From: Candidatus Krumholzibacteriota bacterium
GTDB taxonomy: Bacteria; Krumholzibacteriota; Krumholzibacteriia; LZORAL124-64-63
DNA: 64,000 nt
Reading direction: 5' to 3'
NCBI GenBank assembly: GCA_022711765.1
Contig: JAKLEB010000001.1
Location: forward strand, 724,694 to 788,693
Position 1 is the first letter of the stretch. Each line of letters begins with the position of its first letter. This document shows, in pieces, positions 9,218 through 62,801 of the stretch. The notes beneath the pieces are model-generated. The model made no database searches and was not told the origin of the DNA. It was given only the letters and a program-made list of their open reading frames with translations. The position numbers and the translations under genes are program-made.

Positions 9218-10513
9218 CTACGCGGTGACGCCGGTCGGCGTCATGACCATCTGCTCCCGGCTCTTGCCCACCGAGATCCCGACGACGAGAACCCCGAGCG
9301 ACCGCTCCAGGTACTCCAGGTACTTCCGGGCGTTGGCCGGCAGGTCGGCGAGGCGGCGGCACTTGCCGAGCGGCTTCTCCCAGCCCGGCAGCTCCTTCAG
9401 CACCGGGCGCACCCGACAGCTCTCGTCCGGGCGGATCGGGAAGTCGTCTCGGCGTTCGCCGTCCAGATCGTACGCCTCGGCGACCTTCACGACCGGCAGC
9501 GCGTCCAGCACATCGAGCTTGGTGATCACGAGTCCGACGAGTCCGTTGACCCCGACGGCGTACCGGCCGGCCACCAGGTCGAACCAGCCGCAGCGGCGCG
9601 GCCGACCGGTCGTCGCCCCGTATTCGCGCCCCAGGGTGCGCAGCTGCTCGCCTTCCTCGGCGCGCAGCTCGGTCGGAAACGGCCCATTGCCGACTCGGGT
9701 GCAGTACGCCTTGAACACGCCCACGACTTCGCCGAGGCAACGCGCCGGCAGGCCGGTACCGGTGAGCGCCCCACCGACGGTGGAGTTGCTGCTGGTCACG
9801 AAGGGATAGGTCCCGTGATCGATATCCAGCAGCGTGCCCTGCGCGCCCTCGAAGAGCGCCGATTCGCGGCCCTCGCGCACGCCGCGCAGCGCCGAGTAAC
9901 CGTCGACGATCAGGGGGCGCAGCGACTGGGCCAGGACCACCAGCTCCTCGGCCAACACCTTGGCCGGGAGCGGCTCGGCGTCGAAGGTCTTGGCGAGCAC
10001 CTCGTTGGCCTCGAGGATGTGCTCGATCGCGGCGCGTTCCAGCTTCTCCAGGGGCGCCGTCAGGTCGCCGAAACGCAGCCCGGCGCGGGCCAGCTTGTCC
10101 TGGTAGGCCGGACCGATGCCGCGTCCGGTCGTGCCGATCGACTTGCGCTTGCGCTGGATCTCGCGCAATTCGTCGAACCGCTTGTGGTACGGCATCAGCA
10201 GCTGCGCGGCGCTCGAGACGTGCAGGCGATTGCGGACCCGGACGCCCTGCTCCTCGAGCGCGAGGATCTCGTCGCGGAGCGCCCAGGGGTCGATGACCAT
10301 TCCGTTGCCCAGATAGCAGCGCACCGCCTCCCGGAAGATCCCCGACGGGACCAGGTGCAGCACGTGCTCGCGGGCGCCGACCTGGATGGTATGGCCGGCG
10401 TTGGCGCCGCCCTGGTACCGGATGACCCAGTCGTAGCCTTCGCCGAGGGCGTCGATGACCTTGCCCTTGCCCTCGTCACCCCACTGCCCCCCGATGATGA
10501 CCCGATTCTCCAC
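9218..10513 (-). CDS. purA: adenylosuccinate synthetase PurA
   Basis: GTG start inferred inside ORF 9218..10681 (VENRVIIGGQWGDEGKGK aligns with the canonical PurA N-terminus). Contains the GTTGRGIGPAY and KLDVLD motifs. 432 aa. Confidence 0.85.
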   Translation of the reverse strand: MENRVIIGGQWGDEGKGKVIDALGEGYDWVIRYQGGANAGHTIQVGAREHVLHLVPSGIFREAVRCYLGNGMVIDPWALRDEILALEEQGVRVRNRLHVSSAAQLLMPYHKRFDELREIQRKRKSIGTTGRGIGPAYQDKLARAGLRFGDLTAPLEKLERAAIEHILEANEVLAKTFDAEPLPAKVLAEELVVLAQSLRPLIVDGYSALRGVREGRESALFEGAQGTLLDIDHGTYPFVTSSNSTVGGALTGTGLPARCLGEVVGVFKAYCTRVGNGPFPTELRAEEGEQLRTLGREYGATTGRPRRCGWFDLVAGRYAVGVNGLVGLVITKLDVLDALPVVKVAEAYDLDGERRDDFPIRPDESCRVRPVLKELPGWEKPLGKCRRLADLPANARKYLEYLERSLGVLVVGISVGKSREQMVMTPTGVTA

Positions 10514-10588
10514 GGCATCTCCTCGCCCGCTGGTCGGAATCGCCCGCCGGACGCCAAAAAAAGAGCCCACACCGGGGCCTGGCACTGC

Positions 10589-10611
10589 GGACCGGGCCGA
10601 CGGCCCGGTCC
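10589..10611 (-). terminator. hairpin immediately after the small CxxCH gene
   Basis: ggaccgggcc-gac-ggcccggtcc, a 10 bp perfect inverted repeat 4 nt past the stop at 10615. A T7 run on the transcribed strand (A-run 10556-10562) lies about 26 nt further downstream, ahead of the purA start. Confidence 0.4.
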
Positions 10612-10614
10612 CCG

Positions 10615-11034
10615 CTATTTCAGCTCGAACAGGGCCTTCAACTCGCCCCAGGTGCGGACGTCCACATTGGAACCGCCGCAATCGCCCGCGACGCCCGGGT
10701 TGCTCAACAGCGAGGTCACGTTGCCATCGACGTTGCCGTCCCCCCCGACGTCGCCGAGTTCCACGCCGTTGACGCAGGCGTCACCGTCGGAATCCACGGC
10801 CGCCAGGGTCGCGTTCCAGATCCGGCCATTGGCCAGGAAGTCGGACCCGAAGGAGTTCAGGTCGGCCGGGAGCGGGTCGCTCACGTGGCAGATCAGGCAT
10901 TCGAACGGCTCGACCAGCGGCAATTGCTGCAGATCCAGCTCCGTCGCCCAGGACGGCAAGCTGAACCCGATCGCGGCCAGCACGGCCAGCCCCAGGGCCC
11001 GCCTCGCTCGCCGGCAGTCGCCGTAACGAATCAT
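10615..11034 (-). CDS. small secreted protein (139 aa) with a CxxCH heme-binding motif and three Asp-rich dockerin/EF-hand-like repeats
   Basis: Internal Met of ORF 10615..11079. Signal peptide MIRYGDCRRARRALGLAVLAAIGFSLPSWA. CLICH motif. Repeats DSDGDACVNG, DVGGDGNVDGNV and DCGGSNVDV. Has its own consensus promoter (next feature). Confidence 0.6.
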   Translation of the reverse strand: MIRYGDCRRARRALGLAVLAAIGFSLPSWATELDLQQLPLVEPFECLICHVSDPLPADLNSFGSDFLANGRIWNATLAAVDSDGDACVNGVELGDVGGDGNVDGNVTSLLSNPGVAGDCGGSNVDVRTWGELKALFELK

Positions 11035-11077
11035 CGGTGCTCGATCCTCTCGCCGCAAAGCCGGTGCCTCTGCTCCC

Positions 11078-11107
11078 ATTATATCGACCCCTGGCGGCTA
11101 AAGTCAA
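11078..11107 (-). promoter_or_regulatory. near-consensus sigma70 promoter for the small CxxCH gene
   Basis: Transcribed strand reads TTGACT-18 nt-TATAAT, about 40 nt upstream of the ATG, with GAGAGGA in the leader. The -35 overlaps the engB stop codon. Confidence 0.6.
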
Positions 11108-11697
11108 ACACCATGATCGGCGGCTGTCAAGACCGCCGCCACCCAGCCCAGAACCTCGTCGCGGCCCTGCTTGCGGCGGGTCGAGGTCGGCAGGAACGGC
11201 ACGTCCGGCCCGAGCCCCAGGACGTCGATGACCCTCCGGTAATGCTCGAGGCGGGCCGGGGCGCCGACCTTGTCGATCTTGGTGGCAACCAAGGCGAACG
11301 GACGTTCGCTGCGGACGAGCCAGCCGGAGACCTCGAGATCCTGGTCGCTCGGCGCGTGGCGGCAGTCCATCAGGTGCAGGACGGCCAGGGGCCGGTCCTC
11401 CGTGGTCAGGTAGCGCTCGAACAGCCGCCACCACTGGCGGCGCTGCGCCTGGCTCACCCGGGCGTAGCCATAGCCTGGCAGGTCCACCAGGTAGTAGCGG
11501 CCATCGACCAGGTAGTAGTTCAGGAGGCGCGTCTTGCCCGGTTGCCCGCTCGTCCTCGCCAAGCCCTTGCGCTGCAAGAGGTAGTTGATGAGCGAGGACT
11601 TGCCGCAGTTGCTGCGCCCGACGCAGGCGAACTCGGGCAGCACCGGCGCGGGCCGCTGCGCGAGATCCGGGAAACTGCCGACGAAGATCACCTGCAA
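11104..11697 (-). CDS. engB: ribosome biogenesis GTPase EngB (YsxC/YihA)
   Basis: TTG start inferred inside ORF 11104..12216 (LQVIFVGSF...). G1 motif GRSNCGKSSLIN, with G3 and G4 present. Start is 1 nt from the lon stop, the same lon-ysxC synteny as in Bacillus. Confidence 0.8.
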   Translation of the reverse strand: MQVIFVGSFPDLAQRPAPVLPEFACVGRSNCGKSSLINYLLQRKGLARTSGQPGKTRLLNYYLVDGRYYLVDLPGYGYARVSQAQRRQWWRLFERYLTTEDRPLAVLHLMDCRHAPSDQDLEVSGWLVRSERPFALVATKIDKVGAPARLEHYRRVIDVLGLGPDVPFLPTSTRRKQGRDEVLGWVAAVLTAADHGV

Positions 11698-11699
11698 GA

Positions 11700-14051
11700 T
11701 CAGGCCCCGTCGATCAGGGCCAGGTCCAGGACAGTGTCCATGGTCTCGACGAGATGCACGGTCAACTGCTTGCGAATCAGCGGGCTGAGTTCCCGGAATT
11801 CCTTCTCGTTGTCGCGCGGGATGATCAGGTGCCTGGCCCCCGCGCGGACGGCGGCCACGGCTTTCTCGGGCAATCCGCCGATCGGCAGGACCTTGCCGCG
11901 CAGGGTGACCTCGCCGGTCATCGCCACGTCCTTGCGCACCTTGCGGTCGGTCAGCAAGGACACCATGGCCGTGGCCATCGCGACCCCCGCCGACGGACCG
12001 TCCTTGGGAATCGCGCCCTCCGGCACGTGGACGTGGATCTGGTGCTCCTGGAACCAGTCGCCGCCGCGATCCGGGCAGTGGACGCGGGCGTAGCTCAGGG
12101 CCGTCTCCGCCGATTCCTTCATGACGTCCTTGAGGTTGCCCGTCAGGACCAGCTTGCCCGAGCCCGACATCGCGCTCGTCTCGATCTCGAGGATCTCGCC
12201 TCCGGCCTCGGTCCACGCGAGGCCCACGACCACGCCGACCTCCGGATCACGGTCCACCTGCTGTCTCAGGTAGCGCGGGACGCCCAGGTAGTGCGACACG
12301 TTGCGGGCCGTGATCCAGCCTGGATACCGGTCGCGTTCCGCCCGATGCTTCGCCACCTTCCGGCAGATGGCGCCGATCTCGCGTTCCAGGTTGCGCACGC
12401 CGGCTTCGCGCGTGTAGCCGTCGATGATGGTCTGCAGCGCCTTCGCGCGGAACCCGGCGTCCCAGCTCTTGATGCCGCTGCGTTCGAGCTGCCGCGGGAC
12501 CAGGAACCGCTCGGCGATCGCCAGCTTCTCGTGCTCCAGGTAGCCCGGCAGGCGGATGATCTCCATCCGGTCCTCCAGCGCGGGCGGGATCGCGTGCAGG
12601 CTGTTCGCGGTCGTGATGAACAGGACCTGCGACAGGTCGAAATCGACCTCGAGGTAGTGATCCGAGAAGTGCGAGTTCTGCTCGGGGTCGAGGACCTCCA
12701 GCAGGGCCGCCGACGGGTCGCCGCGGTAGTCGGCGCCGAGCTTGTCGATCTCGTCCAGCAGGAAGACCGGGTTCCGCGTGCCCGCCTTGCGCAGCGACTC
12801 GATGATGCGGCCCGGCTTGCTGCCGATGTAGGTACGGCGGTGGCCGCGGATCTCCGCCTCGTCGCGCACGCCGCCGAGGCTGATCCGCACGAACCGCCGG
12901 CCGAGGCTCCCGGCGATGCTGCGGCCGAGACTGGTCTTGCCCACGCCCGGGGGACCGACGAGGCACAGGATCGAGCCCTGCATCTTGCGCGTCAGCTTGT
13001 AGACGGCCAGGAACTCGATGATCCGGTCCTTGACCTTGTCCAGCCCGTAATGGTCGGCATCGAGCTGGCGGCGGACCTTGCGCGTGTCGATGCGGTCGCG
13101 CGAGCGCTTCTTCCAGGGCAATTCCAGCAGCGTGTCGAGGTAGTTGCGCACGACCGTGGCCTCGGGGGACATGCCGGGCATGCGCGCGAGCCGGGACAGC
13201 TCGCGCTGGGCCGCGTCGTTGACCTCCGGCGGCAGATCGCACGCCTTGATCTTCTCCGCGTACTCCTCGACCTCGGAATCCTCGTCCGAGTGGTAGCCGA
13301 GCTCCTTGCGGATGGCCCGCAGCTGCTCGTTCAGGTAGAACTCCCGCTGGTTCTTCTGGACCTGGCTCTGGACCTCGCTGTCGATCCGCCGCTCGATCTC
13401 GAGGATCTCCAGCTCGTCGGCGAGGATCTGGTTGATCCGCGACAGCCGCGTGAAGAGGTTGGCTTCGGCGAGCAACTCCTGCTTGAGCGAGGTCTTGCCG
13501 AGGATGTAGCCGCTGATGGAGTCCGCCATGCGGTCGATCGCCTCGAGGTTCAGCACCGAGAGCAACACCTCGTCAGGCAGCCGCTTGTTGAGCCGGACGT
13601 AGTCCTTGAAGCGGTCCTTGATCGAACGGCTGAGCGCCTCGATCCGCGGTCCCTCCTCCGTCTCCTCCACGCGCGGCGAGACGGCGACCGTCAGGTACTC
13701 GCCGGTGTCGCCGGTCTCGCCGAGGTCCACCCGCGCCAGGCCCTCGACGAGGATCTTCAGGGTCTCGTCCGGCGTGCGGATCACCTGCAGGACCTTGATC
13801 ACGGTCCCGACGTCGTGGAGTTCGTCGCGGCCGGGCTCCTCGATGTCCGCCTCCGTCTGGGCCACGACGCAGAGCAGCTTCTCGGCGACCATGGCGGCCT
13901 CGACGGCGGCGACGGAGGCGGCGCGCCCGACCAGGAGCGGCGTCACCATGAACGGGAACACGACCACGTCGCGCAGCGGCAGTAGCGGCAGGAACGAGGG
14001 GACGGCGTGGTCCTCGTCGTCCCGGTGGATGACGAATTCGCGGTCGGCCAT
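11700..14051 (-). CDS. lon: ATP-dependent protease Lon
   Basis: 783 aa. Lon N-domain, AAA+ Walker A GPPGVGKTS, and protease domain with catalytic PKDGPSAG. Confidence 0.95.
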   Translation of the reverse strand: MADREFVIHRDDEDHAVPSFLPLLPLRDVVVFPFMVTPLLVGRAASVAAVEAAMVAEKLLCVVAQTEADIEEPGRDELHDVGTVIKVLQVIRTPDETLKILVEGLARVDLGETGDTGEYLTVAVSPRVEETEEGPRIEALSRSIKDRFKDYVRLNKRLPDEVLLSVLNLEAIDRMADSISGYILGKTSLKQELLAEANLFTRLSRINQILADELEILEIERRIDSEVQSQVQKNQREFYLNEQLRAIRKELGYHSDEDSEVEEYAEKIKACDLPPEVNDAAQRELSRLARMPGMSPEATVVRNYLDTLLELPWKKRSRDRIDTRKVRRQLDADHYGLDKVKDRIIEFLAVYKLTRKMQGSILCLVGPPGVGKTSLGRSIAGSLGRRFVRISLGGVRDEAEIRGHRRTYIGSKPGRIIESLRKAGTRNPVFLLDEIDKLGADYRGDPSAALLEVLDPEQNSHFSDHYLEVDFDLSQVLFITTANSLHAIPPALEDRMEIIRLPGYLEHEKLAIAERFLVPRQLERSGIKSWDAGFRAKALQTIIDGYTREAGVRNLEREIGAICRKVAKHRAERDRYPGWITARNVSHYLGVPRYLRQQVDRDPEVGVVVGLAWTEAGGEILEIETSAMSGSGKLVLTGNLKDVMKESAETALSYARVHCPDRGGDWFQEHQIHVHVPEGAIPKDGPSAGVAMATAMVSLLTDRKVRKDVAMTGEVTLRGKVLPIGGLPEKAVAAVRAGARHLIIPRDNEKEFRELSPLIRKQLTVHLVETMDTVLDLALIDGA

Positions 14052-14056
14052 GGGGG

Positions 14057-15322
14057 CTAGGCTTCCTTGACGTCCACGTCGGGATCGCCGCTGATGACTT
14101 CCGGCGCAGCGCCCTCGGTCACCGTCTCGCGCGTGATGACCACCCGGCGAACGTCGTCCTGGGAGGGAATCTCGAACATCACGTCACGCATCGCGGCTTC
14201 GATGATCGAACGCAGGCCGCGGGCGCCCGTCTTGCGGCCGATGGCCTCGTCGGCGATCGCCTCGAGGGCTCCCGGCGCGAAGACCAGCTCCACGTTCTCC
14301 ATCTCGAGCAGCTTCTGGAACTGCTTCGTGAGCGCGTTGCGCGGCTCGGTCAGGATGCGGATCATCGACGTGCGATCCAGCTCCTCCGTATGCACGACCA
14401 CCGGCAAGCGGCCGATCAGCTCGGGGATCAGGCCGTACTGCATCAGATCCTGGGGCTCGACCTGCGCGAGGGTCTCGCCGCGCCGCGCGTGATGGTGGCG
14501 CTGCTCCGCCTCGCGGCCGAAACCGAGCGCGCCCTGACCGATGCGGCGGGTCACGATCCGGTCCAGACCCTCGAAGGCGCCACCGCAGATGAACAGGATA
14601 TTCCGGGTGTTGACCTCGAGGTACTTCTGCTGCGGATGCTTGCGGCCGCCCTGCGGGGGCACGTTGGCGACGGTCCCCTCGAGGATCTTCAGCAGGGCCT
14701 GCTGGACGCCCTCGCCGGAGACGTCGCGAGTGATGGAGGGATTGCCGCTCTTGCGCCCGATCTTGTCGATCTCGTCGATGTAGATGATGCCCTGCTCCGC
14801 CGAGGCGATGTTGTAGTCCGCCGCCTGCAGCAGGCGCACCAGGATGTTCTCGACGTCCTCGCCGACGTAGCCCGCCTCGGTGAGCGCGGTCGCATCGGCG
14901 ATCGCGAACGGTACGTTCAGGAACCGGGCGAGCGTCTGCGCGAGCAGGGTCTTGCCAGTGCCGGTATTGCCGATCAAGAGGATATTGCTCTTGTCGATCT
15001 CGACCCCGTCTCGGCTCGCCTTCTGGTTGATCCGCTTGTAGTGGTTGTAGACCGCGACCGCGAGCGAGACCTTGGCCTCGTCCTGGCCGATCACGTACTG
15101 GTCGAGGTGGTCCTTGATCTCGAGCGGCTTCGGGAACTCGGGCGGCGCGAGGCTCGCCTCGTCCATGAACTCGCCCTCGAGGATATCGTTGCAGAGCTTG
15201 ATGCACTCGTTGCAGATGTAGACGCTGTTCGGGCCGGCGACGAGCTTCGCCACCTCGTCCTGGCCGCGCGCGCAGAACGAGCACTTGATCATCTGGGGGC
15301 TGCCGTTCTGCCGCCGCTTCAT
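14057..15322 (-). CDS. clpX: ATP-dependent Clp protease ATP-binding subunit ClpX
   Basis: N-terminal zinc finger CSFC...CNEC, Walker A GNTGTGKT, 421 aa. Start is 5 nt after the lon-adjacent stop. Confidence 0.95.
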
Positions 15323-15344
15323 GTTGCCTCCCGGACCTGCCCGA

Positions 15345-15947
15345 CTACTTCTTCTTGGCGTCGATCTCCGAACGACTCTCGATGACCTTGTCGACTAGAC
15401 CATACGCCAGCGCTTCCTCGGCCGACATGAAAAAGTCCCGGTCGCTATCCTCGGCGATCTTCTTCTGGGGCTGGCCCGTGTGCTTGGCGAGGATGGCGTA
15501 CAGCGTGTCGCGGATCTTGAGGATTTCTTTAGTGTAGATCTCGATCATGCTGGCCTGGCCCTGACTCCCGCCCAGCGGCTGGTGGATCATCACCCGGGAG
15601 TTCTTGAGAGCCGACCGCTTGCCCGCGGCTCCCGCAGCCAGCAAAACCGCGCCCATGCTCGAAGCCTGACCCATGCAGATCGTCACGACGTCATTGGTAA
15701 TGTATTGCATCGTATCGTAGATAGCAAGACCGGCCGAGACGCTGCCGCCGGGCGTGTTGACGTACAGGTAGATGTCCCGCTCCGGATCCTCGGCCTGCAG
15801 GTAGAGCAACTGGGCGATGACGAGGTTCGCCACGACGTCATCCACCGGCGACCCCAGGAAAACAATACGATCCTTCAACAAACGCGAATAAATGTCATAA
15901 CCGCGCTCGCCATGGCCCGTCTGCTCCACCACCATCGGCACCAGCAT
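15345..15947 (-). CDS. clpP: ATP-dependent Clp protease proteolytic subunit ClpP
   Basis: 200 aa, Ser-His-Asp triad context ([13 protein letters not shown]). Confidence 0.95.
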
Positions 15948-16038
15948 GTCCGCTCCTTTTGACGCGACGTCGCGTGTCCTGATTACCCCGTACTCCAGCG
16001 CCGGTTCCCATCCATGATACAGCGCCGCCGGGCAATCG

Positions 16039-17355
16039 TCAGTCCTGGTCTTCGACCGGCGCCTGGGTGATTTGAGCGCGGGATAGCAGGAAGTCGTACG
16101 TCAACCGCTCTTCCAGGCCGTGCCGGATCCGGTCCTTCTCGTCGCCATGTTCCACGAACTGGCGGTACTTCTCCAGATCGAAACCGTGGTCGGCGGCGAT
16201 CGCCGCGATCCGGGCGTCCACGTCCTCGGCCGAAACCTCGATCTTCTCCTGGCGGCGCACCGCTTCGAGCAGGAACATGCCCTTGATCTGCCGCTCGGCG
16301 ACCGGTCGCGCGGCCTCGCGGTAGCGCGCATCCTCCTGTTCGCTGTCCGGCCGTCCGAGCTGTTCGTTCCGCTGGTGCAGCTCCTGGAGACCCGAGCGCA
16401 ACCAGGCCTCCACCATGCTGGGCGGCACCGGGACCTCGTTGCGGGCGATCAGGCCGTCGAACAGCTGCTCATCGAGCTCCTCCGCGGCGCGCCGGCGGGC
16501 TTCGGCCTCGAGACCCTCCCGGATGCGGCCGCGCAGCTCCAGGAGTGTCTGCCCGTCCTGCAGCCGGGACGCGAAGGCGTCGTCCGCCTCCGGGAGGATC
16601 TTGGCCTGCACGGCGCCGATCCGGCAGTGGAACGTGACCGTGCGGTCCCGCATCGCCGGGTTGGGGTAGTCCTCGGCGTACGTGACGGTGATGTCGCGCT
16701 CCTGGCCCGCCTCCACGCCGACCAGGGCCTCGTTGAAGGCAGGGAGATTCTGCTCCGCGCCGATGACCACCGGCTGGGCGGCCAGTTGCCTGTCCGTGTC
16801 GAGGCTCCCGTCGTCGCGCCGCGGCACGAGGTCCACCACGACCTGGTCGCCGGTCGCCGCCGGGCGCTGCACGGTCTCGAAGATGGCGCGGTTCTCGCGC
16901 AGGCGCTCGAGGACCTGGTCGACCTCGGAGGTCTTGACCTCGACCGCGCGCTCCGTGACCGGCAGTCCGTCGTAATCCGCGGCGGTCACGTCCGGGCGCA
17001 CCTCGACCCGGAGATCGAAGGCCAGGTCCTTGTCCTCGTCGAAGACGAGGTTCTCGAGAGCCGGCTCGGTGATCGGCAGCAGCCGGTGCTCGATCACCGC
17101 GGCGCGGAAGGCCTGCGGCACGAGCGCCTCGAAGGTCTCGGCGCGCAGGCGGCCGCCCACCTCCTTCTCGACGATCGCCGGCGGAGTCTTGCCCTTGCGG
17201 AATCCCGGGCGCTGATGGCCGCGGATCGCGGCGGCGAGGCGACGCTGGTACTGGCGGTTGTACTCGGCGCGAGGCACCTCCACCTTGATCACCCGCACGC
17301 ACGGCTCGGGCGCCTCGACCGCGAGGCGGAACGGAAGGTTGCTCGGTTCGGGCAT
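16039..17355 (-). CDS. tig: trigger factor (ribosome-associated PPIase chaperone)
   Basis: 438 aa. N-terminal ribosome-binding GFRKGK motif. Conserved position upstream of clpP-clpX-lon. Confidence 0.9.
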
Positions 17356-17405
17356 CAGGGACCTACCTCACAAAGAGCCGACGCCGCCGGCGCCGGACGC
17401 GGTCG

Positions 17406-17490
<85 letters not shown>

Positions 17491-17526
17491 AAAAAACGGC
17501 CCGAGACGGCCCGGACCTGGCGACCC

Positions 17527-17555
17527 AATGTAGCCCGGCCGCCACACGCGGTCAA
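17527..17555 (-). promoter_or_regulatory. candidate sigma70 promoter upstream of tRNA-Leu
   Basis: Transcribed strand reads TTGACC-17 nt-TACATT, about 40 nt before the tRNA 5' end. A GC dyad plus T6 run (gggccgtctcgggccgtttttt) lies between this promoter and the tRNA, so either the promoter or the terminator-like element may not be functional as named. Confidence 0.35.
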
Positions 17556-17584
17556 GCCGGCGACAGCGGGCCTATCCGCCCGGT

Positions 17585-18952
17585 TCACTTCAGCTTGCGG
17601 TAGATCGTCCGCGCATTGATGCCGAGGATCCTGGCCGCGGTTTCCTTGTCGCCGCCCGTCGCGTGGAGCGTGGCCTCGATGAGCTGGAGTTCGGCCTGGT
17701 AGAGCGGAGTGCCGACCGGAATCACGACCTGCTCGTAGCGCGATTTGCCCGCCAGGACCGTCGGCGGCAATACGTCCACGTCCACGAACGGTCCCTTGCT
17801 GAGCACGACGCAGCGCTCGATGCAGTTTTCCAGCTCGCGGACGTTGCCGGGCCAGCCGTGCCGGCTCAGCGCCTCGACCGCCTGCCGCGTGAAACCGCCG
17901 AGGCTCTTGCCGTTCTTCTGGTTGTAGAGCTGCAGGAAGTAGTGGGCGAGCAGGATCACGTCCTCGCCGCGGTTGCGCAGCGGCGGAAGCTCGAGGTTGA
18001 TCACGTTCAGGCGGTAGAACAGGTCCTCGCGGAACTGCCCGCGCTGGACCCGCGCGGCGAGGTCGGCGTTCGTCGCGGCGAGCAGGCGGACGTCCACCGT
18101 ACGGGTCTCGCTGCTGCCCAGGCGCTCGTAGGTCCCCTCCTGGATGACGCGCAGCAGCTTGATCTGGGTGGTGGGGCTCATCTCCCCCACCTCGTCCAGG
18201 AAGAGCGTGCCCCGGTCGGCGAGCTCGAAGCGGCCGGTGCGGCGCCCGACCGCGCCGGTGAAGGCGCCCGGCTCGTAGCCGAAGAGCTCGGCCTCGAGCA
18301 GGGTCTCGGGCAACGCCGCGCAGCTGACCTTCACCAGCGCCTGCTTGCGGCGGTCGCTCCAGCGGTGGATCGCATCGGCGAAGATCTCCTTGCCGGTCCC
18401 GCTCTCCCCGGTCAAGAGCACGGTCGCGGTGCTGGCGGCGACCTGCCGCGCGGTCTCCACGACCTGACGCATGACGTCGCTGCGGCCGATGATGTCGTGG
18501 CGATCCTGGACTTCCTCCAGCCGCCGGCGGAGCTCGAGATTCTCCGCCTGCAATCGCTGCTTTTCCACCGCCTTGCGCACGGTCTTCAAGGTCAGGGCGG
18601 ACGTGAACGGCTTCTCGACGAAATCGTAGGCGCCCAGCTTCATCGCATCGACGGCGACCTCGATGGTCCCGTGGCCGGTGATGATCACGAACTCGGTCCC
18701 GGGCGAGATGACCTTGCCGGTCCGCAGGAGGTCGAGGCCGCCCATCTTGGGCATCACGAGATCCGTCAAAACCAGGTGGATCTCGTGCTGCCGGAGCAGC
18801 CGCAGCGCCTCCTCGCCGTCGCCGGCGGTGAGCACCTGGTAGCCGTTGCGGGTCAGGAGCTTGCTCAGCGCCCGGCAGAGTTCGGGCTCGTCGTCGACCA
18901 CCAGGACCTGGGGTTCTGGCCCGGAGATGGCGGCGGTTTCGCGGTCGGGCAT
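17585..18952 (-). CDS. sigma-54-dependent response regulator (NtrC family: REC + AAA+ sigma54 activator + HTH)
   Basis: 455 aa. REC domain with DDE..D, AAA+ with GESGTGKE and the GAFTGA motif, C-terminal Fis-type HTH. Confidence 0.9.
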   Translation of the reverse strand: MPDRETAAISGPEPQVLVVDDEPELCRALSKLLTRNGYQVLTAGDGEEALRLLRQHEIHLVLTDLVMPKMGGLDLLRTGKVISPGTEFVIITGHGTIEVAVDAMKLGAYDFVEKPFTSALTLKTVRKAVEKQRLQAENLELRRRLEEVQDRHDIIGRSDVMRQVVETARQVAASTATVLLTGESGTGKEIFADAIHRWSDRRKQALVKVSCAALPETLLEAELFGYEPGAFTGAVGRRTGRFELADRGTLFLDEVGEMSPTTQIKLLRVIQEGTYERLGSSETRTVDVRLLAATNADLAARVQRGQFREDLFYRLNVINLELPPLRNRGEDVILLAHYFLQLYNQKNGKSLGGFTRQAVEALSRHGWPGNVRELENCIERCVVLSKGPFVDVDVLPPTVLAGKSRYEQVVIPVGTPLYQAELQLIEATLHATGGDKETAARILGINARTIYRKLK

Positions 18953-19093
18953 GACGGCCTCCGGGGCGGTTGCGGATGGGCTTGGACAGATTGAGGGGGG
19001 CTGGTCCGGGTGTCAAGACCCGCGGTTTGGAGACACCCGTCTCTTGATGTAGATTGGGCGGATTCACGCGTTCGCCCAGCAAAGGAAGGTACG

Positions 19094-20536
19094 ATGGCAG
19101 CCGCCGACTCCGACTCCCCCGCCGCCGGTCGCGCCACCTGGCGTTTCTCGAGGCCGTTCTGGGTCGCCAACGGCGTCGAGGTCCTCGAGCGCGCGGCCTG
19201 GTACGGGGTGTTCGTCGCGATCACGATCTACCTGAGCCGCGTCCTCGGCTTCAACGACGTGCAGGCGGGCGTGATCTCCGGGCTCTTCTCGGCCGGCCTC
19301 TACCTGCTGCCGACGTTCAGCGGCGCGTACGCCGACCGGATCGGGTTCCGCGCGTCCCTGCTCCTGGCGTTCGGCCTGCTCACGGTCGGCTACGCCAGCA
19401 TGTGGGTGTTGCCGGCGCTGATCGAGGCGGGCGGCCTGGCCGCCTACGGGCGAGAGGTCGAGTTCACGGGTCTCGAGCTCACCTGGTACAAGTGGCTCTT
19501 CATCCCGGTGATGCTGGTGGTGATGGTCGGCGGCTCGTTCATCAAGTCCGTCATCACCGGCACGGTCGCCCGGGAAACCAACGAGATCAACCGGGCGCGG
19601 GGCTACTCGATCTTCTACGCGATGGTCAACGTCGGTTCGTTCAGCGGCAAGACGATCGTCCAGCCCCTGCGCGTGAGCCTGGGCGACGAGGGCCTGATCG
19701 TCCTGAACCTGTACGCCGCCGGCATGACGCTCCTCGCGCTCGTCCTCGTCGCGAGATTCTACCGGGCCAGCCGGCCGGCGCAACGGGCGAAGACCCTCGC
19801 CGAGATCTGGCGCTCGCTGGTCGCGGTCTGCACGCGCTGGCGCCTGCTCGCCCTGATCCTCATCATCACCGGCTTCTGGATGGTACAGGCGCAGCTCTAC
19901 GCGACCATGCCGAAGTACGTGCTGCGCATGGCGGGGGAAGGCTCGGCGTTCTCCTGGTACGCCAACGTGAATCCGGCCGTCGTCGTGCTCACGGTGGCCT
20001 GGATCACCCAGTTGATGCGCCGTCGCAGCGCCCTCGCCTCGATGACGGTCGGCATGTTCATCATGCCGCTGTCCGCCTTCTGCATGGCGGCCGGCAACAT
20101 GATCGCGAGCGGCACCCTGTTCGGCGTCAGTGCGATCGCGGCGATGATGCTGATCGGGATCGCGTTCCAGGGCCTCGCGGAGAGCTTCATCTCGCCGCGC
20201 TTCCTCGAGTACTTCTCGAAGCAGGCGCCGGAGGGAGAGGAGGGGCTCTACCTCGGATTCAGCCACCTGCATTCCTTCCTCTCGGCGGTCTTCGGCTTCT
20301 CGCTCTCGGGAGTCCTGCTGCAGCGGTGGTGCCCGGAGCCGACCACGCTCCCGGACGCCGTCCAGCAGCAGCGGCTGCGCGCGCTCGCGGGCGACGCTCC
20401 CTGGCCGGACGCGTACGCCCACGCCCACTACATCTGGTTCGTCTTCGTGGGCGTCGCCATCGTCTCGGCGGTCGCGCTGATCGCCTTCGGCGTGATCACC
20501 CGCCGTCTCGACGAACGGGCGGCGCGGGGCGCGTGA
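19094..20536 (+). CDS. MFS-type membrane transporter (12-14 TM helices; POT/DtpT-like features possible)
   Basis: Internal Met of ORF 19010..20536, with AAGGAAGG 6 nt upstream. Highly hydrophobic repeated helices. A TTGGAG-17-TAGATT sigma70-like element lies about 50 nt upstream. Confidence 0.65.
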   Translation: MAAADSDSPAAGRATWRFSRPFWVANGVEVLERAAWYGVFVAITIYLSRVLGFNDVQAGVISGLFSAGLYLLPTFSGAYADRIGFRASLLLAFGLLTVGYASMWVLPALIEAGGLAAYGREVEFTGLELTWYKWLFIPVMLVVMVGGSFIKSVITGTVARETNEINRARGYSIFYAMVNVGSFSGKTIVQPLRVSLGDEGLIVLNLYAAGMTLLALVLVARFYRASRPAQRAKTLAEIWRSLVAVCTRWRLLALILIITGFWMVQAQLYATMPKYVLRMAGEGSAFSWYANVNPAVVVLTVAWITQLMRRRSALASMTVGMFIMPLSAFCMAAGNMIASGTLFGVSAIAAMMLIGIAFQGLAESFISPRFLEYFSKQAPEGEEGLYLGFSHLHSFLSAVFGFSLSGVLLQRWCPEPTTLPDAVQQQRLRALAGDAPWPDAYAHAHYIWFVFVGVAIVSAVALIAFGVITRRLDERAARGA

Positions 20537-42955: not shown

Positions 42956-43927
42956 ATGACGCTCCGCGTGGGAATCGTCGGCGCCGGGATCCACGGCACC
43001 CGCTACCTCCGTCACCTCGAGCACGACGCGCCCGGACTCGCGCCGGCGGCGCTCTGCCGCCGCGACCCCCGCGCGGGCCAGGAACTCGGCGCGGGGCTCG
43101 GCATCCCGTGGTTCGCAAGCTACGAGGACCTGATCGACCACCCCGGGGTCGATTCCGTGATCGTCGCCACGCCGCCGGCGAGCCACTTCGCCATCGCCGC
43201 GCGCGCGCTCGCCGCCGGCAAGCCGGTCCTGGTCGAGAAGCCGATGACCGGGACGCTGGCCGAGGCGAGGCGGCTCGCGACGCTGGCGGCGGCGCCCGGC
43301 GCGCCTCTGCTCATGGTGGCCCAGACGTTGCGCTGGAATCCGGTCCTGCAGCGCGTCCGCTCGCTGTGGCCGCGGCTCGGGCGCGTCCACCTGGTGCGGT
43401 TCGCGCAGCGGCTCGCCCCCACGGCTCTGACCTGGCAGCGCGAGCCGGCCGAGACCGTCGGCGGCTCCGTCCTCTTGACCGGCGTGCACGGCTTCGATCT
43501 CGTGCGCTGGCTCACCGGCCGCGAGTTCCGTCGCATGGATTCTCGCCAGCGCCAGGTGCTCAATCCCGTGGTCGAGGACCTGTTCCTCGCGCGCGCCGAA
43601 CTGGACGACGGCTGCTGGGTGAGCTGCGAGGTCAGCAAGTTCACGCAGAGCCAGGCGTGCTGGCTCGAGGCCGTCGGCGAGGCGGGACAGATCTGGGCCG
43701 ACTACCTCGACGGCGGCCTCGTGCTGCGATGCGGCCGCGAGGAGTTCCGCGAGACGGTCGACGCGCGGTCGCCGACGCTGCCCTCAGTGCTCGACGCCTG
43801 GCGTGACGCGATCGAGCGCGAGCGGCCAGCCCCGGTAACGGCCGTCGACGGGCTGCGCACCCTCGAGGTCGCCGACGCGTGCTACCGCTCGCAGCGGCGC
43901 GGCGGCGCCGTGGGCCTCGAGCTCTAG
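42956..43927 (+). CDS. Gfo/Idh/MocA family NAD(P)-dependent oxidoreductase
   Basis: Rossmann VGIVGAGIHG N-terminus and the GKPVLVEKP motif. 323 aa. Confidence 0.75.
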   Translation: MTLRVGIVGAGIHGTRYLRHLEHDAPGLAPAALCRRDPRAGQELGAGLGIPWFASYEDLIDHPGVDSVIVATPPASHFAIAARALAAGKPVLVEKPMTGTLAEARRLATLAAAPGAPLLMVAQTLRWNPVLQRVRSLWPRLGRVHLVRFAQRLAPTALTWQREPAETVGGSVLLTGVHGFDLVRWLTGREFRRMDSRQRQVLNPVVEDLFLARAELDDGCWVSCEVSKFTQSQACWLEAVGEAGQIWADYLDGGLVLRCGREEFRETVDARSPTLPSVLDAWRDAIERERPAPVTAVDGLRTLEVADACYRSQRRGGAVGLEL

Positions 43928-45013
43928 GCTCGCGCGGGCCGCCGTGATGTCGCAGGAGTGCAGGAGCGAGCCGGCGCCGAAGTCGCGGATGGTCGCCTGG
44001 ACCCAGGCGCGACCGTCGCGATCGGTCACGGCCATGGGCTCGGGCAGGAGCTCCACCTCCGTTTCGGCCGGCAGCCGCTCGCTGGCGGCCATCGCCTCCA
44101 GGATCAGGCGATCGCGCCGCCCCCAGCTGCGCGCGCGTCCCAGGGTCTCGCAGCCCAGCAGGCCGACGACCTCGCCGCGCCGCCGCACCGGCACCACCAT
44201 CAGGCTCGCGATGCCCTGGTCGAGCCAGCGGGCCAGCTCGGGGACGTCGGCCGCCGACAGCGTACGCAGGTCGGGAACGAGGATCGCCCCCTCGTCGCGC
44301 AGCCGCGCGACGAGCCAGGGAAACTGCGCGAGGGCCGGCAGAGTCTGGTCGCCCGCGAGCGGAGAGACGCCCTCGGCGTACCACTGGCGCACGCTGACCA
44401 GGCTCGTCCGGTCGGCGCTGCTCTCGTAGTGGTAGCACCGATCGGCGCGGAGTTGCCGGCCGATCTCGGCCAGGCCGCCGCTGACCACGAGCTCGATCTC
44501 GTCCGGACTGACCGCCGCGGCATCCGGATCGGGCGCGAAGAACCCGCGCCAGCCGGCGACGCGGCCGCGCTCGAGGCTCGCAGCCAGCCGCAGCGACGCC
44601 GGGACGGTCGCGCCGTCGCGACAGCGGAGCCAGTACGAGTGGACCCGGACGCCCGAGCCCGCGCCGGCCCGATCGAGGTCCTGCAGCAGGCGAGTCCTGT
44701 CCTCGGGCGCGACGAGATCGCCGAGCGTCAGGCCGCAGTGCAGGTCGCGGTCCCGGTAGCCCGTGAGGACCTGGAACGCGCGGTTCGTGTACGTCACGAC
44801 CAGGCTGGCGTTGGCCTCGAAGAGGACCCCGTCCAGGAGATCGCCTACCGCATCGAGACGGGCGGTGCTACGCTGGTAGATGCGACCGGTCTCGGTCCAG
44901 GCGGCCCGGACCTGGCGGCGCAGGCGGAGGATCAGGAGACCCGAGACGGCGAGGGCCGAACCGGCCGCGGCGAGCGCTGCGACCGGCCAGGAAGCGATCA
45001 CGGCCGGCACCAT
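43784..45013 (-). CDS. membrane-anchored PAS-GAF sensor protein without output domain
   Basis: 409 aa. N-terminal TM helix, PAS-like block (VTYTNRAFQVLTGY), then a GAF-like block. The last 48 codons overlap the convergent oxidoreductase gene, so the true stop is uncertain. Confidence 0.5.
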   Translation of the reverse strand: MVPAVIASWPVAALAAAGSALAVSGLLILRLRRQVRAAWTETGRIYQRSTARLDAVGDLLDGVLFEANASLVVTYTNRAFQVLTGYRDRDLHCGLTLGDLVAPEDRTRLLQDLDRAGAGSGVRVHSYWLRCRDGATVPASLRLAASLERGRVAGWRGFFAPDPDAAAVSPDEIELVVSGGLAEIGRQLRADRCYHYESSADRTSLVSVRQWYAEGVSPLAGDQTLPALAQFPWLVARLRDEGAILVPDLRTLSAADVPELARWLDQGIASLMVVPVRRRGEVVGLLGCETLGRARSWGRRDRLILEAMAASERLPAETEVELLPEPMAVTDRDGRAWVQATIRDFGAGSLLHSCDITAARASLELEAHGAAAPLRAVARVGDLEGAQPVDGRYRGWPLALDRVTPGVEH

Positions 45014-47388: not shown

Positions 47389-47418
47389 CCCCCCTGCTCC
47401 ATCACTGTGGCGTCGCCG

Positions 47419-47443
47419 GGCCCCGCGGTCGTACCGCGGGGCC
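47419..47443 (+). terminator. hairpin terminator after cheW
   Basis: ggccccgcgg-tcgta-ccgcggggcc, a 10 bp perfect inverted repeat followed by tttcgtcgt. It lies 30 nt after the cheW stop and 20 nt before the next start. Confidence 0.55.
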
Positions 47444-47463
47444 TTTCGTCGTATCATGGTGGC

Positions 47464-49410
47464 ATGCGCACGCTCCTCGCCGCCACGCTCCTGGCCGCCG
47501 CCGCGGCCCGCGTCGTCTGGCCCGCGCCGGCCGACAAGTTCAGCGCCGCCGAGCCCTGGCCCGGCCGGATCCCCGCCGCTGACGACCGCGGCTTCGACGT
47601 GCTGCAGTACGACCTCGAGGTGGACCTGGACATCGACGCCGGCGCGCCCGTGGAACGGCGGCTCTGGCTCGACGGCGTGATGCGCGTCATCCTGCGTCTG
47701 GCCGCCCCGCTGCCGCCCGAGGTGCGCCTCGACCTCGTGGACTCGCTCGGGGCGATCGAGGTCCGCTGGCAGGACGTCCCGACGCCGTTCGTCCAGGCCG
47801 GAGACAGCCTGCGCGTCGCGACCGGCCCCGGCGCCGCGGCCGGCGACACCGTCACCGTGACCGTGACCTACGGAGGGTACGTCCAGCGCCATGGGCCGAT
47901 GTCCGCCGGTCTCCTCACGCGAGCGCATGCCGGCGGGCGGCCAAGCGTGGGCAACGTGAACCAGCCGTATTCCAGCCACAGCTGGTTCCCGTGCAAGGAC
48001 CACCCGTCGGACAAGGCCGCGCTGCGCTTCGCGGTGACGGTCCCCGACACCCTCGCCGCGGTCGCGAGCGGCCGGCTCCTGGGGACCGAGGAACCGGCCC
48101 CGGGCCGCCGCACCTGGCGCTGGGCGACCGACCACCCGATCGCGCCGTACCTCGTCGGCCTCGCGGTGAGCGACTTCGCGGTCTGGGACGAAGACTGCGA
48201 CGGGGTGCCCCTGCAGTACCTCGTGTTTCCCGAACACCGCGCCGCCGCCGAGGCCGTGTTCGCCGAGACCTGCGCGATGATGCGCTGGCTCGGCGATCTC
48301 TGCGGTCCCTACCCGTTCGCCGACGAGAAATACGCGCAGGCCGAGTTCGTCTGGGGCGGCGCGATGGAGAACCAGACCGCGACCGTGATCGGTCAGACCG
48401 TGTTCGCGCAGCCGGTGCGCGACGCGCAGCTCACCGTGGTCCACGAGCTGTCGCACCACTGGTTCGGCGACAGCCTGACTCCGCGCCACTGGCGCGACAT
48501 CTGGCTCAACGAGGGTTTCGCGCGCTACGTCGAGCTGCTCTGGCTCGAGCACACCGAGGGCCCGCAGGCGTATCGCGAGCGCCTCCAGGGACTGAAGCCC
48601 GCCGACCTCTTCCAGGGCGACGGCCTGCTCGGCGATCCGGATCCCGTCCTGCAGCGGCTCGTCTACGACAAGGGAGCCTGGGTGCTGCACATGCTGCGGC
48701 TGTACCTCGGCGACCCGACGTTCTTCGCGTTCCTCCGCGAGTACGCCACCGATCCCGACCTGGCGTACGCGCACACCGATCGAGCCGCGCTCACCGCCGC
48801 GCTCGGCCGCGCCGCGGGCCGCGACCTGGCGCCGTTCCTCGCACCCTGGCTCGACACGGAGGCGCTGCCCGCGATCGGCGCGCGCTGGCGCGCCGGCGGC
48901 GGCTCGCGCACCCTGGTGGAGGTCGTCCAGAGCCAGGGCGAGCCGTTCTTCCCGCTCGTGGTGCCCGTGCGCGTGCACGCCGGCCTCGAGACCCGGGACC
49001 TGCTGCTGCGCATGGACGACCTGCTCGCCAGCGCGGAGGTCACGACCACGATGCCGGTCGACAGTGTCGTCGTCGATCCGGACGACCTCCTGCTGCGCGT
49101 GACCGCGGCCACGCCGCAGCCGCGGTTGCTCGCGGCCCAGGTCCGGCCCAATCCGGCCTCCGGCGCGACCGTCCTGGCGTACTGGCTCGCGGGCGCCGAC
49201 CGGGTCGCGGCCGCCGTGTACGATGTGCGCGGACGGCTCGTCAGGCGCATGGACCTCGGCGCGCAGCCGGCGACCGGCGACGGCGAGCCGCGCCTCTGGG
49301 TCTGGGATGGCCGCGACGAGGCCGGCCGGCGCGCCGCGGCCGGCGTCTACTGGCTGGAGCTCCGCACCCGCGACGACCGCGCGGCGCGCAAGGTCACGCT
49401 GCTGCGCTAG
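47464..49410 (+). CDS. M1-family aminopeptidase with signal peptide and C-terminal FlgD-Ig/T9SS-like sorting domain
   Basis: Internal Met of ORF 47407..49410. GAMEN motif (GGAMENQ), HELSHHWFGD...E zinc site. C-terminal ~80 aa (VRPNPASGATVLAYW...VYDVRGRLV...AGVYWLELRT...KVTLLR) shared with two other proteins in the window. Confidence 0.8.
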   Translation: MRTLLAATLLAAAAARVVWPAPADKFSAAEPWPGRIPAADDRGFDVLQYDLEVDLDIDAGAPVERRLWLDGVMRVILRLAAPLPPEVRLDLVDSLGAIEVRWQDVPTPFVQAGDSLRVATGPGAAAGDTVTVTVTYGGYVQRHGPMSAGLLTRAHAGGRPSVGNVNQPYSSHSWFPCKDHPSDKAALRFAVTVPDTLAAVASGRLLGTEEPAPGRRTWRWATDHPIAPYLVGLAVSDFAVWDEDCDGVPLQYLVFPEHRAAAEAVFAETCAMMRWLGDLCGPYPFADEKYAQAEFVWGGAMENQTATVIGQTVFAQPVRDAQLTVVHELSHHWFGDSLTPRHWRDIWLNEGFARYVELLWLEHTEGPQAYRERLQGLKPADLFQGDGLLGDPDPVLQRLVYDKGAWVLHMLRLYLGDPTFFAFLREYATDPDLAYAHTDRAALTAALGRAAGRDLAPFLAPWLDTEALPAIGARWRAGGGSRTLVEVVQSQGEPFFPLVVPVRVHAGLETRDLLLRMDDLLASAEVTTTMPVDSVVVDPDDLLLRVTAATPQPRLLAAQVRPNPASGATVLAYWLAGADRVAAAVYDVRGRLVRRMDLGAQPATGDGEPRLWVWDGRDEAGRRAAAGVYWLELRTRDDRAARKVTLLR

Positions 49411-54165: not shown

Positions 54166-54594
54166 TCAGCGCAGGAGCACCGCCTTCGTGGTGCGGATCG
54201 CGGACTCCGTGGTCAGGCGCACGAGGTACGCGCCCGACGGGAGGGCGCGGCCGGCGTCGTCCGTGCCGCGCCAGCTGAGGATGTGGCGGCCGGCGGGGCG
54301 GGGGGTGTCGAGGAGCGTGACCAGGCGGCGGCCGCGGAGGTCGTGGATGGTGACGGTGGCGTGGGTCGGGCACGGGAGATCGAAGGAGATCGTCGTTGCC
54401 GGGTTGAAGGGGTTGGGGGTGGCGGGGTGGAGGATGATGGCTGCGGCCGCCACGCCAACGGGTTCCTCCGGCCCCTCTGGGTGATCAACCGGCAGAATGT
54501 CGTGGCAATCGACCGGGAGAAGGTGACGGACCGCAGGCGAGGTAGACCTCTCCATCGAACTCGCGGATACGGATCTCCGAGTAGTCCGGCACAT
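54166..54594 (-). pseudogene. orphan FlgD-Ig/T9SS-like C-terminal sorting domain without signal peptide or passenger domain; probable gene remnant
   Basis: 142-aa ORF whose last ~85 aa match the sorting domains of the M1 and M6 proteases (ATPNPFNPATTISFDLP...VTIHDLRGRRLV...GAYLVRLTT...KAVLLR). The N-terminal 55 aa are Arg/Ser-rich with no signal peptide. Upstream DNA is the AT-rich promoter of the HNH gene. Confidence 0.35.
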
Positions 54595-54713: not shown

Positions 54714-54745
54714 TTGACAACGCGCCAATCTTTTCGTCTAATTTT
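54714..54745 (+). promoter_or_regulatory. sigma70-like promoter in an AT-rich patch upstream of the HNH endonuclease gene
   Basis: TTGACA (54714-54719), then a 17-19 nt spacer, then a tcTAATtt -10 region, about 35 nt before the ATG at 54778. The local sequence (attgtcgatcgtccgctcttaccccattgacaacgcgccaatcttttcgtctaattttcg) is well below the genomic GC. Confidence 0.45.
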
Positions 54746-54777
54746 CGCCATCACCCCCTCCCGGAACCCAGGCCCCG

Positions 54778-62799: not shown

Positions 62800-62801
62800 G
62801 A

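Follow-up and report, generated by a model that had tools for sequence, protein, structure and literature searches.

Among described proteins, the closest to the one considered here is temptin, a water-borne pheromone-complex protein of Aplysia californica in which two disulfides have been mapped and for which a calcium loop was reportedly proposed by Cummins and colleagues in 2007. Whole-word searches of the literature for temptin returned animal and oomycete papers only, none of them tying temptin to heme. We analyzed the gene for a bacterial member of this family, found between engB and purA in a 64,000-nt stretch of a Candidatus Krumholzibacteriota genome (contig JAKLEB010000001.1; GC content 70.4%), hereafter the window, whose positions serve as coordinates throughout. 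The gene almost certainly encodes a real, expressed and exported temptin-family protein. The fuller statement, that a monocistronic gene specifies a small Sec-exported temptin protein with covalently attached heme c, is one that we favor by a modest measure.

The 139-aa open reading frame (ORF) named in an earlier sequence-only reading of this DNA does exist (10615-11034, stop TAG), though on the minus strand and not as that reading had it. The Pfam family is known, and the sequence is already public as a hypothetical protein: it is identical to PLL30_05225 of a Candidatus Krumholzibacteria metagenome-assembled genome (MAG) at NCBI and is present on 22 contigs, mostly longer than 1 Mb. What appears to be unreported, in the literature that could be searched, is a bacterial temptin branch carrying an invariant heme c motif beside a calcium loop.

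A bacterial branch of the temptin family

The protein matched Pfam PF24784 (Temptin_C) at 42.5 bits against a gathering cut-off of 27 (E 9e-11), with residues 49-97 aligned to profile positions 30-78. A first homology search gave 58 small proteins of 102-184 aa, all 58 of which belong to PF24784. Invariant among them are C46, C49, H50, N60, F62, G63, W73, L77, A78 and S82, together with D83, D85, N89, G90, E92, G94, D95, N112, P113 and G114, and at least 90% conservation was observed for C87, W129, G130, L132, K133 and F136.

A profile search of 1.84 billion cluster representatives matched 2,726 proteins at E<=1e-3, 560 of them at E<=1e-10. The CxxCH motif was present in ~140 of the 148 newly listed profile representatives, 13-17 residues before NxFG and ~35 before DxDxDG, and in 94 of 101 further matches, where the exceptions look eukaryotic; among distant bacterial relatives it was found in ~95%. 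Members without CxxCH were fragments or came from eukaryotes, namely the oomycetes Lagenidium and Phytophthora and the mollusc Tegillarca, whose member is named 'Temptin Cys/Cys disulfide domain-containing protein'. The sequence-only reading had allowed that homologues lacking the motif might reveal it to be fortuitous; in the bacterial relatives examined, fragments aside, it is instead invariant. Across the superfamily the conserved columns are P39, CxxCH, N60, F62, G63, W73, L77, A78, D81, S82 and D83, followed by D85, N89, G90, E92, L93, D95, G98 and N112-P113-G114.

Three architectures were seen. The module occurs as small single-domain proteins, as in the window; as an N-terminal 'SSYxSxIPNGxxxxCxxCH...' module straight after the signal peptide of large proteins, joined there to Ig arrays, multiheme c7/c3 domains (P0138, P0183), MopE/EGF_CA repeats, CHRD, BNR/sortilin or cohesin/dockerin domains; and as tandem arrays of 4-7 units (P0100, P0094, P0072).

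Aplysia temptin itself matched the bacteria-only module profile (A2) at E 2e-16 and aligned with the window protein over the whole module at 33% identity. Both are small secreted proteins that have a signal peptide and for which a calcium loop is proposed, and they have in common P39, H50, LNxFGxDF, W73, DSDGDGxxNGxELGD and a later (N/H)PG. Eukaryotic temptins differ in having (G/A)VGH in place of CxxCH, a replacement that retains the His but neither Cys, in possessing other disulfide cysteines (LC...GDPxC), and in lacking the C-terminal TWGxLKxLF helix. Reciprocally, the LC, GDPxC and C-terminal C positions of the temptin disulfide pattern are Ala or absent in the window protein, whose cysteines are those of CxxC plus C87 and C119, a subfamily difference that does not exclude it from PF24784. 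The role of temptin in binding attractin within the pheromone complex has no obvious bacterial counterpart.

A second described relative is the NCBIfam family NF041762, 'GEGP motif-containing diheme protein', which shows the same unit of CxxCH, ~10 residues, Nx(F/Y)G and a DSDGDG EF-hand-like loop. The tandem relative P0072 is a full member (~434 bits, cut-off 300) and P0100 scored 248 bits. The window protein reached 24.4 bits against the cut-off of 300, as a single unit, not two or more, and with an extra C-terminal helix; NF041762 is thus a related family, and the window protein, with its single CxxCH, lies outside it. No paper was found in a literature search for 'GEGP motif', and the family name rests on motifs.

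Features of the protein

The coding sequence and the features of its product are as follows.

10615-11034, minus strand: coding sequence, 139 aa plus TAG, PF24784 Temptin_C (ORF, Pfam match and homologues)
10945-11034, minus strand: predicted signal peptide, residues 1-30, cleaved between SWA and TE (sequence pattern and relatives)
10885-10899, minus strand: CLICH, residues 46-50 (C46, C49, H50), putative c-type heme attachment motif (shared with homologues)
10759-10794, minus strand: EF-hand-like 12-residue loop, D81-S-D-G-D-A-C-V-N-G-V-E92, DSDGDACVNGVE (ligand positions 1, 3, 5, 9 and 12)
10720-10752, minus strand: second acidic Gly/Asp loop, residues 95-105, DVGGDGNVDGN (family consensus GDADGDGxADGN)
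10678-10776, minus strand: putative disulfide from the C87 codon (10774-10776) to the C119 codon (10678-10680) (paired loss in relatives)
10624-10659, minus strand: predicted C-terminal amphipathic helix, residues 126-137, VRTWGELKALFE (conservation and structure model)

The signal peptide of the sequence-only reading held up as judged from its residue pattern and from conservation among relatives. It has an Arg-rich start, a hydrophobic core (LGLAVLAAIGF) and SWA before T at -3/-1; in relatives, position -1 is Ala in 80% and position -3 Ala or Val in 70%. The predicted peptide contains neither a lipobox nor a conserved twin-arginine motif. By this pattern the export expected of a c-type cytochrome is predicted, since the basic, hydrophobic, AxA N-terminus is kept in the family. 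The mature protein has 109 aa, with 18 Asp and Glu against 4 Lys and Arg; it lacks Met and Tyr and contains one His.

Where three Asp-rich repeats had been proposed, we found one loop (81-92) and one degenerate acidic loop (95-105), the supposed third repeat being an overlapping reading of the latter. In the loop at 81-92, D81, S82, D83, D85, N89, G90 and E92 are each at least 91% conserved superfamily-wide. The strict PROSITE pattern PS00018 failed there (position 6 is Ala), whereas the looser DxDxD[GA]xxNxxE matched; 27 of the 58 close homologues pass the strict pattern. In the second loop, superfamily-wide conservation reaches at least 95% at D95 and G98, and the remainder is specific to the small family. 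Because the first loop has the EF-hand ligand pattern and the equivalent loops of P0072 match Pfam EF-hand_1, calcium is likely the structural ion of the predicted D81-E92 loop. A disulfide between C87 and C119 is suggested by their joint loss, both being replaced in P0055 and P0057.

The conserved C-terminal residues W129, L132, K133 and F136 (i, i+3, i+4, i+7), each conserved in at least 90% of the family, would share one face of the predicted helix, and a TW(G/A)xIKxL helix also occurs in small single-domain relatives of other lineages. A general sorting signal of the form WGxLKxLF is unsupported, as six-frame translation of the window shows the motif in this ORF alone. One relative of 151 aa from JGI (P0209) ends in VPALTSQGLFILASILVVSGVHAWRSSSQRA instead of the amphipathic TWGxLKxLF helix, a tail that resembles a sorting tail of the IPTL-CTERM type. 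The source name of P0209, 'dopamine beta-monooxygenase', looks wrong and probably stems from homology to temptin-DBH fusions.

An AlphaFold2 model of the protein (mean predicted local distance difference test score 84) consists mainly of loops and short helices, with a helical turn at CxxC, a short helix (89-92) within the C-terminal half of the calcium loop and no helix before that loop. A loop-rich fold is expected to suit a protein with a cofactor at its core. Foldseek gave no PDB match for the predicted structure, and searching PDB sequences with either the protein alone or the family profile turned up no significant match; the best ones, a TFIIE zinc ribbon (E 0.13) and the diheme cytochrome FoxE (E 0.37), were both driven by CxxCH.

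Evidence for a probable heme c protein

Judging from the pattern of conservation, the protein probably carries covalent heme c on its single CxxCH, which lies at residues 46-50 as the sequence-only reading had it. Heme c is favored because the middle residues of the motif vary freely between species loci (LI, LA, LS, AN, QN, HS, TI and others) while C, C and H are invariant, because the CxxCH proteins are exported, and because P0138 and P0183 join the module to multiheme domains and NCBIfam names its arrays diheme proteins. It is favored too by the eukaryotic secreted homologues, which have lost exactly the thioether Cys and kept the axial His; the secretory pathway of eukaryotes is not known to contain machinery for attaching heme c. 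Of the earlier proposal of a mini-cytochrome or adhesion module, it is therefore the mini-cytochrome that survives, as the leading reading given the invariant CxxCH, and the adhesion half, resting on dockerin and cohesin, that falls.

The cellular setting has also been described for the phylum. Krumholzibacteriota MAGs encode many multiheme proteins (PMC11495043), and one such MAG encodes cox, cbb3, NrfAH, Hao, OmcS and Cyc2 (PMC7914226); according to these studies, the phylum has c-type cytochrome machinery. Within the window, a 1048-aa protein with PD40 beta-propeller repeats and an Omp85 domain (55905-59051, minus strand) implies a diderm cell with a periplasm. The other ORF of the window with a CxxCH motif (54742-55905, plus strand; CARCH) is an HNH endonuclease by Pfam, with a CxxC of the zinc-finger type and not a heme site.

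The window protein resembles small periplasmic c-type cytochromes (c551/c552, Geobacter PpcA, Desulfovibrio c3) in its Sec signal, mature size of ~110 aa and one CxxCH near the mature N-terminus, and in being acidic and soluble with signs of high expression. Unlike them, it has no Met or His as distal ligand and matches no cytochrome c family of Pfam or NCBIfam, and its predicted fold is mostly loops, including calcium loops, rather than the three-helix class I fold. The class I cytochrome c families PF00034 and PF13442 gave no match at E<=10.

If heme is bound, we propose that after export the cytochrome c maturation system would link one heme covalently to C46 and C49, and H50 would serve as its proximal ligand. 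Calcium in D81-E92, perhaps a second ion in D95-N105, and the C87-C119 disulfide would hold the loop-rich fold, and the W129/L132/K133/F136 face of the C-terminal helix would pack over the heme. Since Met, Tyr and a second His are all missing from the mature protein, the distal position would have to be empty or unusual: the heme would be five-coordinate, or ligated by K133 or the N-terminal amine. K133 as distal ligand is speculation based on its conservation in the family and its place on the same helix face as W129, L132 and F136. The strong promoter described below would make the protein abundant in the periplasm, where its most likely role would be that of a soluble redox carrier or a small-ligand-binding hemoprotein; that it acts specifically as an electron shuttle we consider rather unlikely.

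Alternative readings of the motif and the loops

Several observations weigh against a heme protein. A distal ligand of the usual kind, Met or His, is not conserved, and no Met, Tyr, Lys or second His is found among the superfamily-conserved columns. Cytochrome c families of Pfam (to E<=10) and NCBIfam were not matched, and the FoxE match in the PDB is insignificant (E 0.37). The module is often N-terminal on large Ig-repeat surface proteins, a position that suggests binding over electron transfer, and eukaryotic homologues function without CxxC. The type species of the phylum is described as fermentative and as using no external electron acceptors (PMC7914226). The window ORFs that we scanned include no cytochrome c maturation genes, and genomic context offered no functional partner, the neighbors in Krumholzibacteria being housekeeping genes in separate transcription units. 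The main rival reading is that CxxCH is a redox-active disulfide or a Zn, Cu or Fe site in an abundant calcium-binding envelope protein that binds a protein or ligand, as animal temptin does. The missing standard distal ligand and the working of eukaryotic temptins without the two Cys agree with it, as does the place of the module as an N-terminal 'tip' on Ig-repeat, CHRD, BNR and cohesin/dockerin surface proteins; one relative has a Rieske protein on one side and a heavy-metal P-type ATPase on the other, a second carries fused metal-binding motifs of the MopE type, and the best, though insignificant, PDB sequence matches include zinc ribbons. Fully invariant C, C and H with free middle residues in exported bacterial proteins are, however, the signature of heme c, and a Cys and a His that are neighbors in sequence seldom coordinate one and the same metal. 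Nor would a Cys2His site outlast the loss of both Cys with the His kept, as happened in eukaryotes, and neither the fusions to multiheme domains nor the diheme name that NCBIfam gives the tandem form fits a non-heme site. We regard a non-heme site as unlikely, if still deserving of attention, and heme c as the better account.

A dockerin-like adhesion module, docking a cohesin-like partner through duplicated calcium loops, was raised by the sequence-only reading and is effectively refuted. The loop at 81-92 does share with EF-hand and dockerin type I loops its 12 residues, Asp at 1, 3 and 5, Asn at 9 and Glu at 12 (DxDxD(G/A)xxNxxE); a second Asp/Gly-rich loop follows it, and the distant multidomain relative P0147 has cohesin and dockerin domains elsewhere in its chain. 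In P0147, though, dockerin and temptin module form distinct domains. The window protein has no EF-hand or dockerin match in Pfam at E<=10 (Dockerin type I, PF00404, included), belongs to Temptin_C, and has only one superfamily-conserved loop, with neither a flanking helix-loop-helix pair nor a duplicated loop-helix F-hand pair. Its conserved core (P39, CxxCH, NxFG, W73, LA, NPG) is without counterpart in dockerins.

An independently transcribed gene between engB and purA

On the minus strand, the ORF follows lon (11700-14051) and engB (11104-11691) and precedes purA (9218-10513), whose GTG start at 10513 lies beyond the T7 run listed here with the other transcript signals.

11102-11107, minus strand: -35 hexamer TTGACT, its TGA (11104-11106) being the engB stop; TTGAC(T/A/G/C) in compared loci
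11078-11083, minus strand: -10 hexamer TATAAT after an 18-nt spacer, with a predicted transcription start near 11071 (sequence and comparison)
11045-11051, minus strand: Shine-Dalgarno-like GAGAGGA, 10 nt 5' of the ATG at 11034; GAGGAG-like boxes in homologous 5' leaders
10589-10612, minus strand: perfect 10-bp GC-rich hairpin, mRNA GGACCGGGCC-CGUC-GGCCCGGUCC, 2 nt past the stop (sequence)
10556-10579, minus strand: second hairpin (10564-10579) and T7 run (10556-10562), likely an intrinsic terminator (sequence and comparison)

An alternative 154-aa reading starts at 11079, with an ATG (11077-11079) that overlaps the -10 box. The 139-aa product is preferred because this upstream ATG lies inside TATAAT and because the N-termini of homologues align at the 139-aa start.

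TTGACT-18-TATAAT (11107-11078) scored 11/12 against the consensus and is the top site of the window; 100 Markov shuffles of that sequence yielded no site as high as 11/12. The claim that the window's best sigma70 promoter overlaps the engB stop is thus confirmed. The description of the 3´ end needs amendment: the perfect 10-bp hairpin does follow the stop codon, but the T7 run is not directly behind it, lying 26 nt further on after a second, weaker hairpin of 5 bp (10564-10579). An Rfam scan of 10400-11250 found no known RNA family. At the end of engB (11109-11122, minus strand), a weak terminator-like hairpin, CGCCGATCATGGTG then TTTGACTTTA, extends into the -35 hexamer and might curb read-through of lon-engB transcription.

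We also noted three other sites of at least 10/12 in the window, all on the minus strand (45106, 54152 and 54695) and each 60-75 nt upstream of a minus-strand ORF start; the ORFs behind them are 43784-45013, a UvrD-like helicase (51842-54064) and a 142-aa ORF (54166-54594). In all, 4 sites of at least 10/12 were observed against 0.13 expected from shuffles. Because the other sites also sit 60-75 nt before ORF starts, the organism seems to use classical sigma-70 promoters, and the consensus seems meaningful here.

The arrangement is conserved. As far as the contigs reach, the order tig-clpP-clpX-lon-engB-ORF-purA was found in 8 of 8 called-gene loci, with homologues 42-71% identical, and the same block surrounds the more distant member P0297. 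A survey with one genome per GTDB species yielded 73 loci, in 59 of which the ORF was recognized by pattern, with CxxCH in all 59. Wherever a species-level locus had sufficient flank, purA lay downstream of the ORF, and synteny was kept at protein identities down to ~40%. A promoter of at least 11/12 was found upstream in 50 of the 59 species, perfect TTGACA-17/18-TATAAT in 16 of those, whereas 1.3% of 250-nt windows elsewhere in the same loci reach 11/12. A run of at least five T within 130 nt downstream was present in 47 of 58 species loci.

Given the fixed position and the promoter and terminator kept across species, the gene is, on this comparative evidence, an old, vertically inherited and independently transcribed unit, and conservation of the near-consensus promoter argues that it is probably highly expressed. 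The sequence-only reading had likewise proposed an independent and strongly expressed unit, which the conserved promoter and the hairpin and T-run terminator bear out. Its further suggestion, that the gene had been dropped into a housekeeping neighborhood, failed. Recent horizontal acquisition, as a cargo gene placed with its own promoter in a housekeeping cluster, might be read from the strong promoter and terminator amid this block and from the scatter of the wider module family over many phyla and eukaryotes. Against it stand the constant position in every locus with enough flank, at identities down to ~40%, the GC content of the ORF, which matches its neighbors (0.671 versus 0.68-0.70), and the absence of mobile-element genes adjoining the ORF in the window; we consider recent acquisition effectively refuted and scarcely credible.

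The informative labels among the 73 loci were mostly Krumholzibacteriota, many records being titled merely 'bacterium'. Some with the engB-ORF-purA context are titled 'uncultured Fibrobacteraceae bacterium', one Gemmatimonadales and one Latescibacterota (L010, L013, L014 and L016 are among the loci concerned); these titles look like mislabeled or placeholder taxonomy.

The chaperone/protease block tig-clpP-clpX-lon-engB (window 11104-20400, minus strand; also L001, L003-L009 and L086) is conserved in Krumholzibacteria. In Bacillus subtilis the order is tig-clpX-lonB-lonA-ysxC(engB) followed by the hemAXCDBL heme-biosynthesis operon. That a CxxCH gene should follow engB here, paralleling the B. 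subtilis heme operon, may be coincidence.

Contexts in other lineages vary, comprising a Rieske protein with a P-type ATPase, ThuA with glycoside hydrolases, and transposases. In an unrelated 4.2-Mb genome (L083, 3986-8746), the small temptin-like CxxCH protein P0226 is flanked by a heavy-metal (HMA) P-type ATPase and by a divergently transcribed 602-aa protein with a Rieske domain, a neighborhood that hints at a metal or redox context, unseen at the other loci examined.

Elsewhere in the window, a peptidase M1 (47389-49410, plus strand) ends in a FlgD_ig domain that may serve as a tail for secretion or sorting, and a very long ORF (58936-63999) that follows the PD40-Omp85 gene runs off the window end.

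Evolution and significance of the module

The DOMON superfamily includes heme-binding, electron-donating members. In lophotrochozoans, the temptin domain stands in place of DOMON at the N-terminus of DBH-like copper monooxygenases (PMC2762978). This replacement would fit a cofactor-binding ancestry for temptin, and we offer it as a lead only.

Taken together, the observations allow a broader reading, which we put forward tentatively as possible but short of probable: that the temptin fold began as a bacterial, calcium-stabilized heme c module, that animal and oomycete temptins and the lophotrochozoan temptin-DBH domain are its Cys-losing descendants, and that the Krumholzibacterial protein is a highly transcribed monoheme cytochrome with a previously unsolved fold. 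The descendants would have lost the Cys since the secretory pathway cannot attach heme c, and would have kept the axial His, possibly for non-covalent heme or a metal. Few of the phylum's envelope proteins would be transcribed more strongly than this one, and its heme would have non-canonical distal coordination, with Lys133 of the C-terminal helix as ligand or none.

If no heme is bound, the protein is simply a conserved hypothetical calcium-binding envelope protein. If heme c is attached, it represents a widespread, uncharacterized exported heme/calcium module, with 2,726 cluster representatives at E<=1e-3 and no experimental literature that we could find on the bacterial module. A classic animal pheromone protein would then be linked to bacterial cytochromes, and a redox or cofactor-binding role would be suggested for the temptin domain in the temptin-monooxygenase fusions. 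For the uncultured Krumholzibacteriota, the gene offers a clear instance of a sigma-70 promoter close to consensus, and its product, a conserved and probably very abundant periplasmic protein, is a natural target for metaproteomics.

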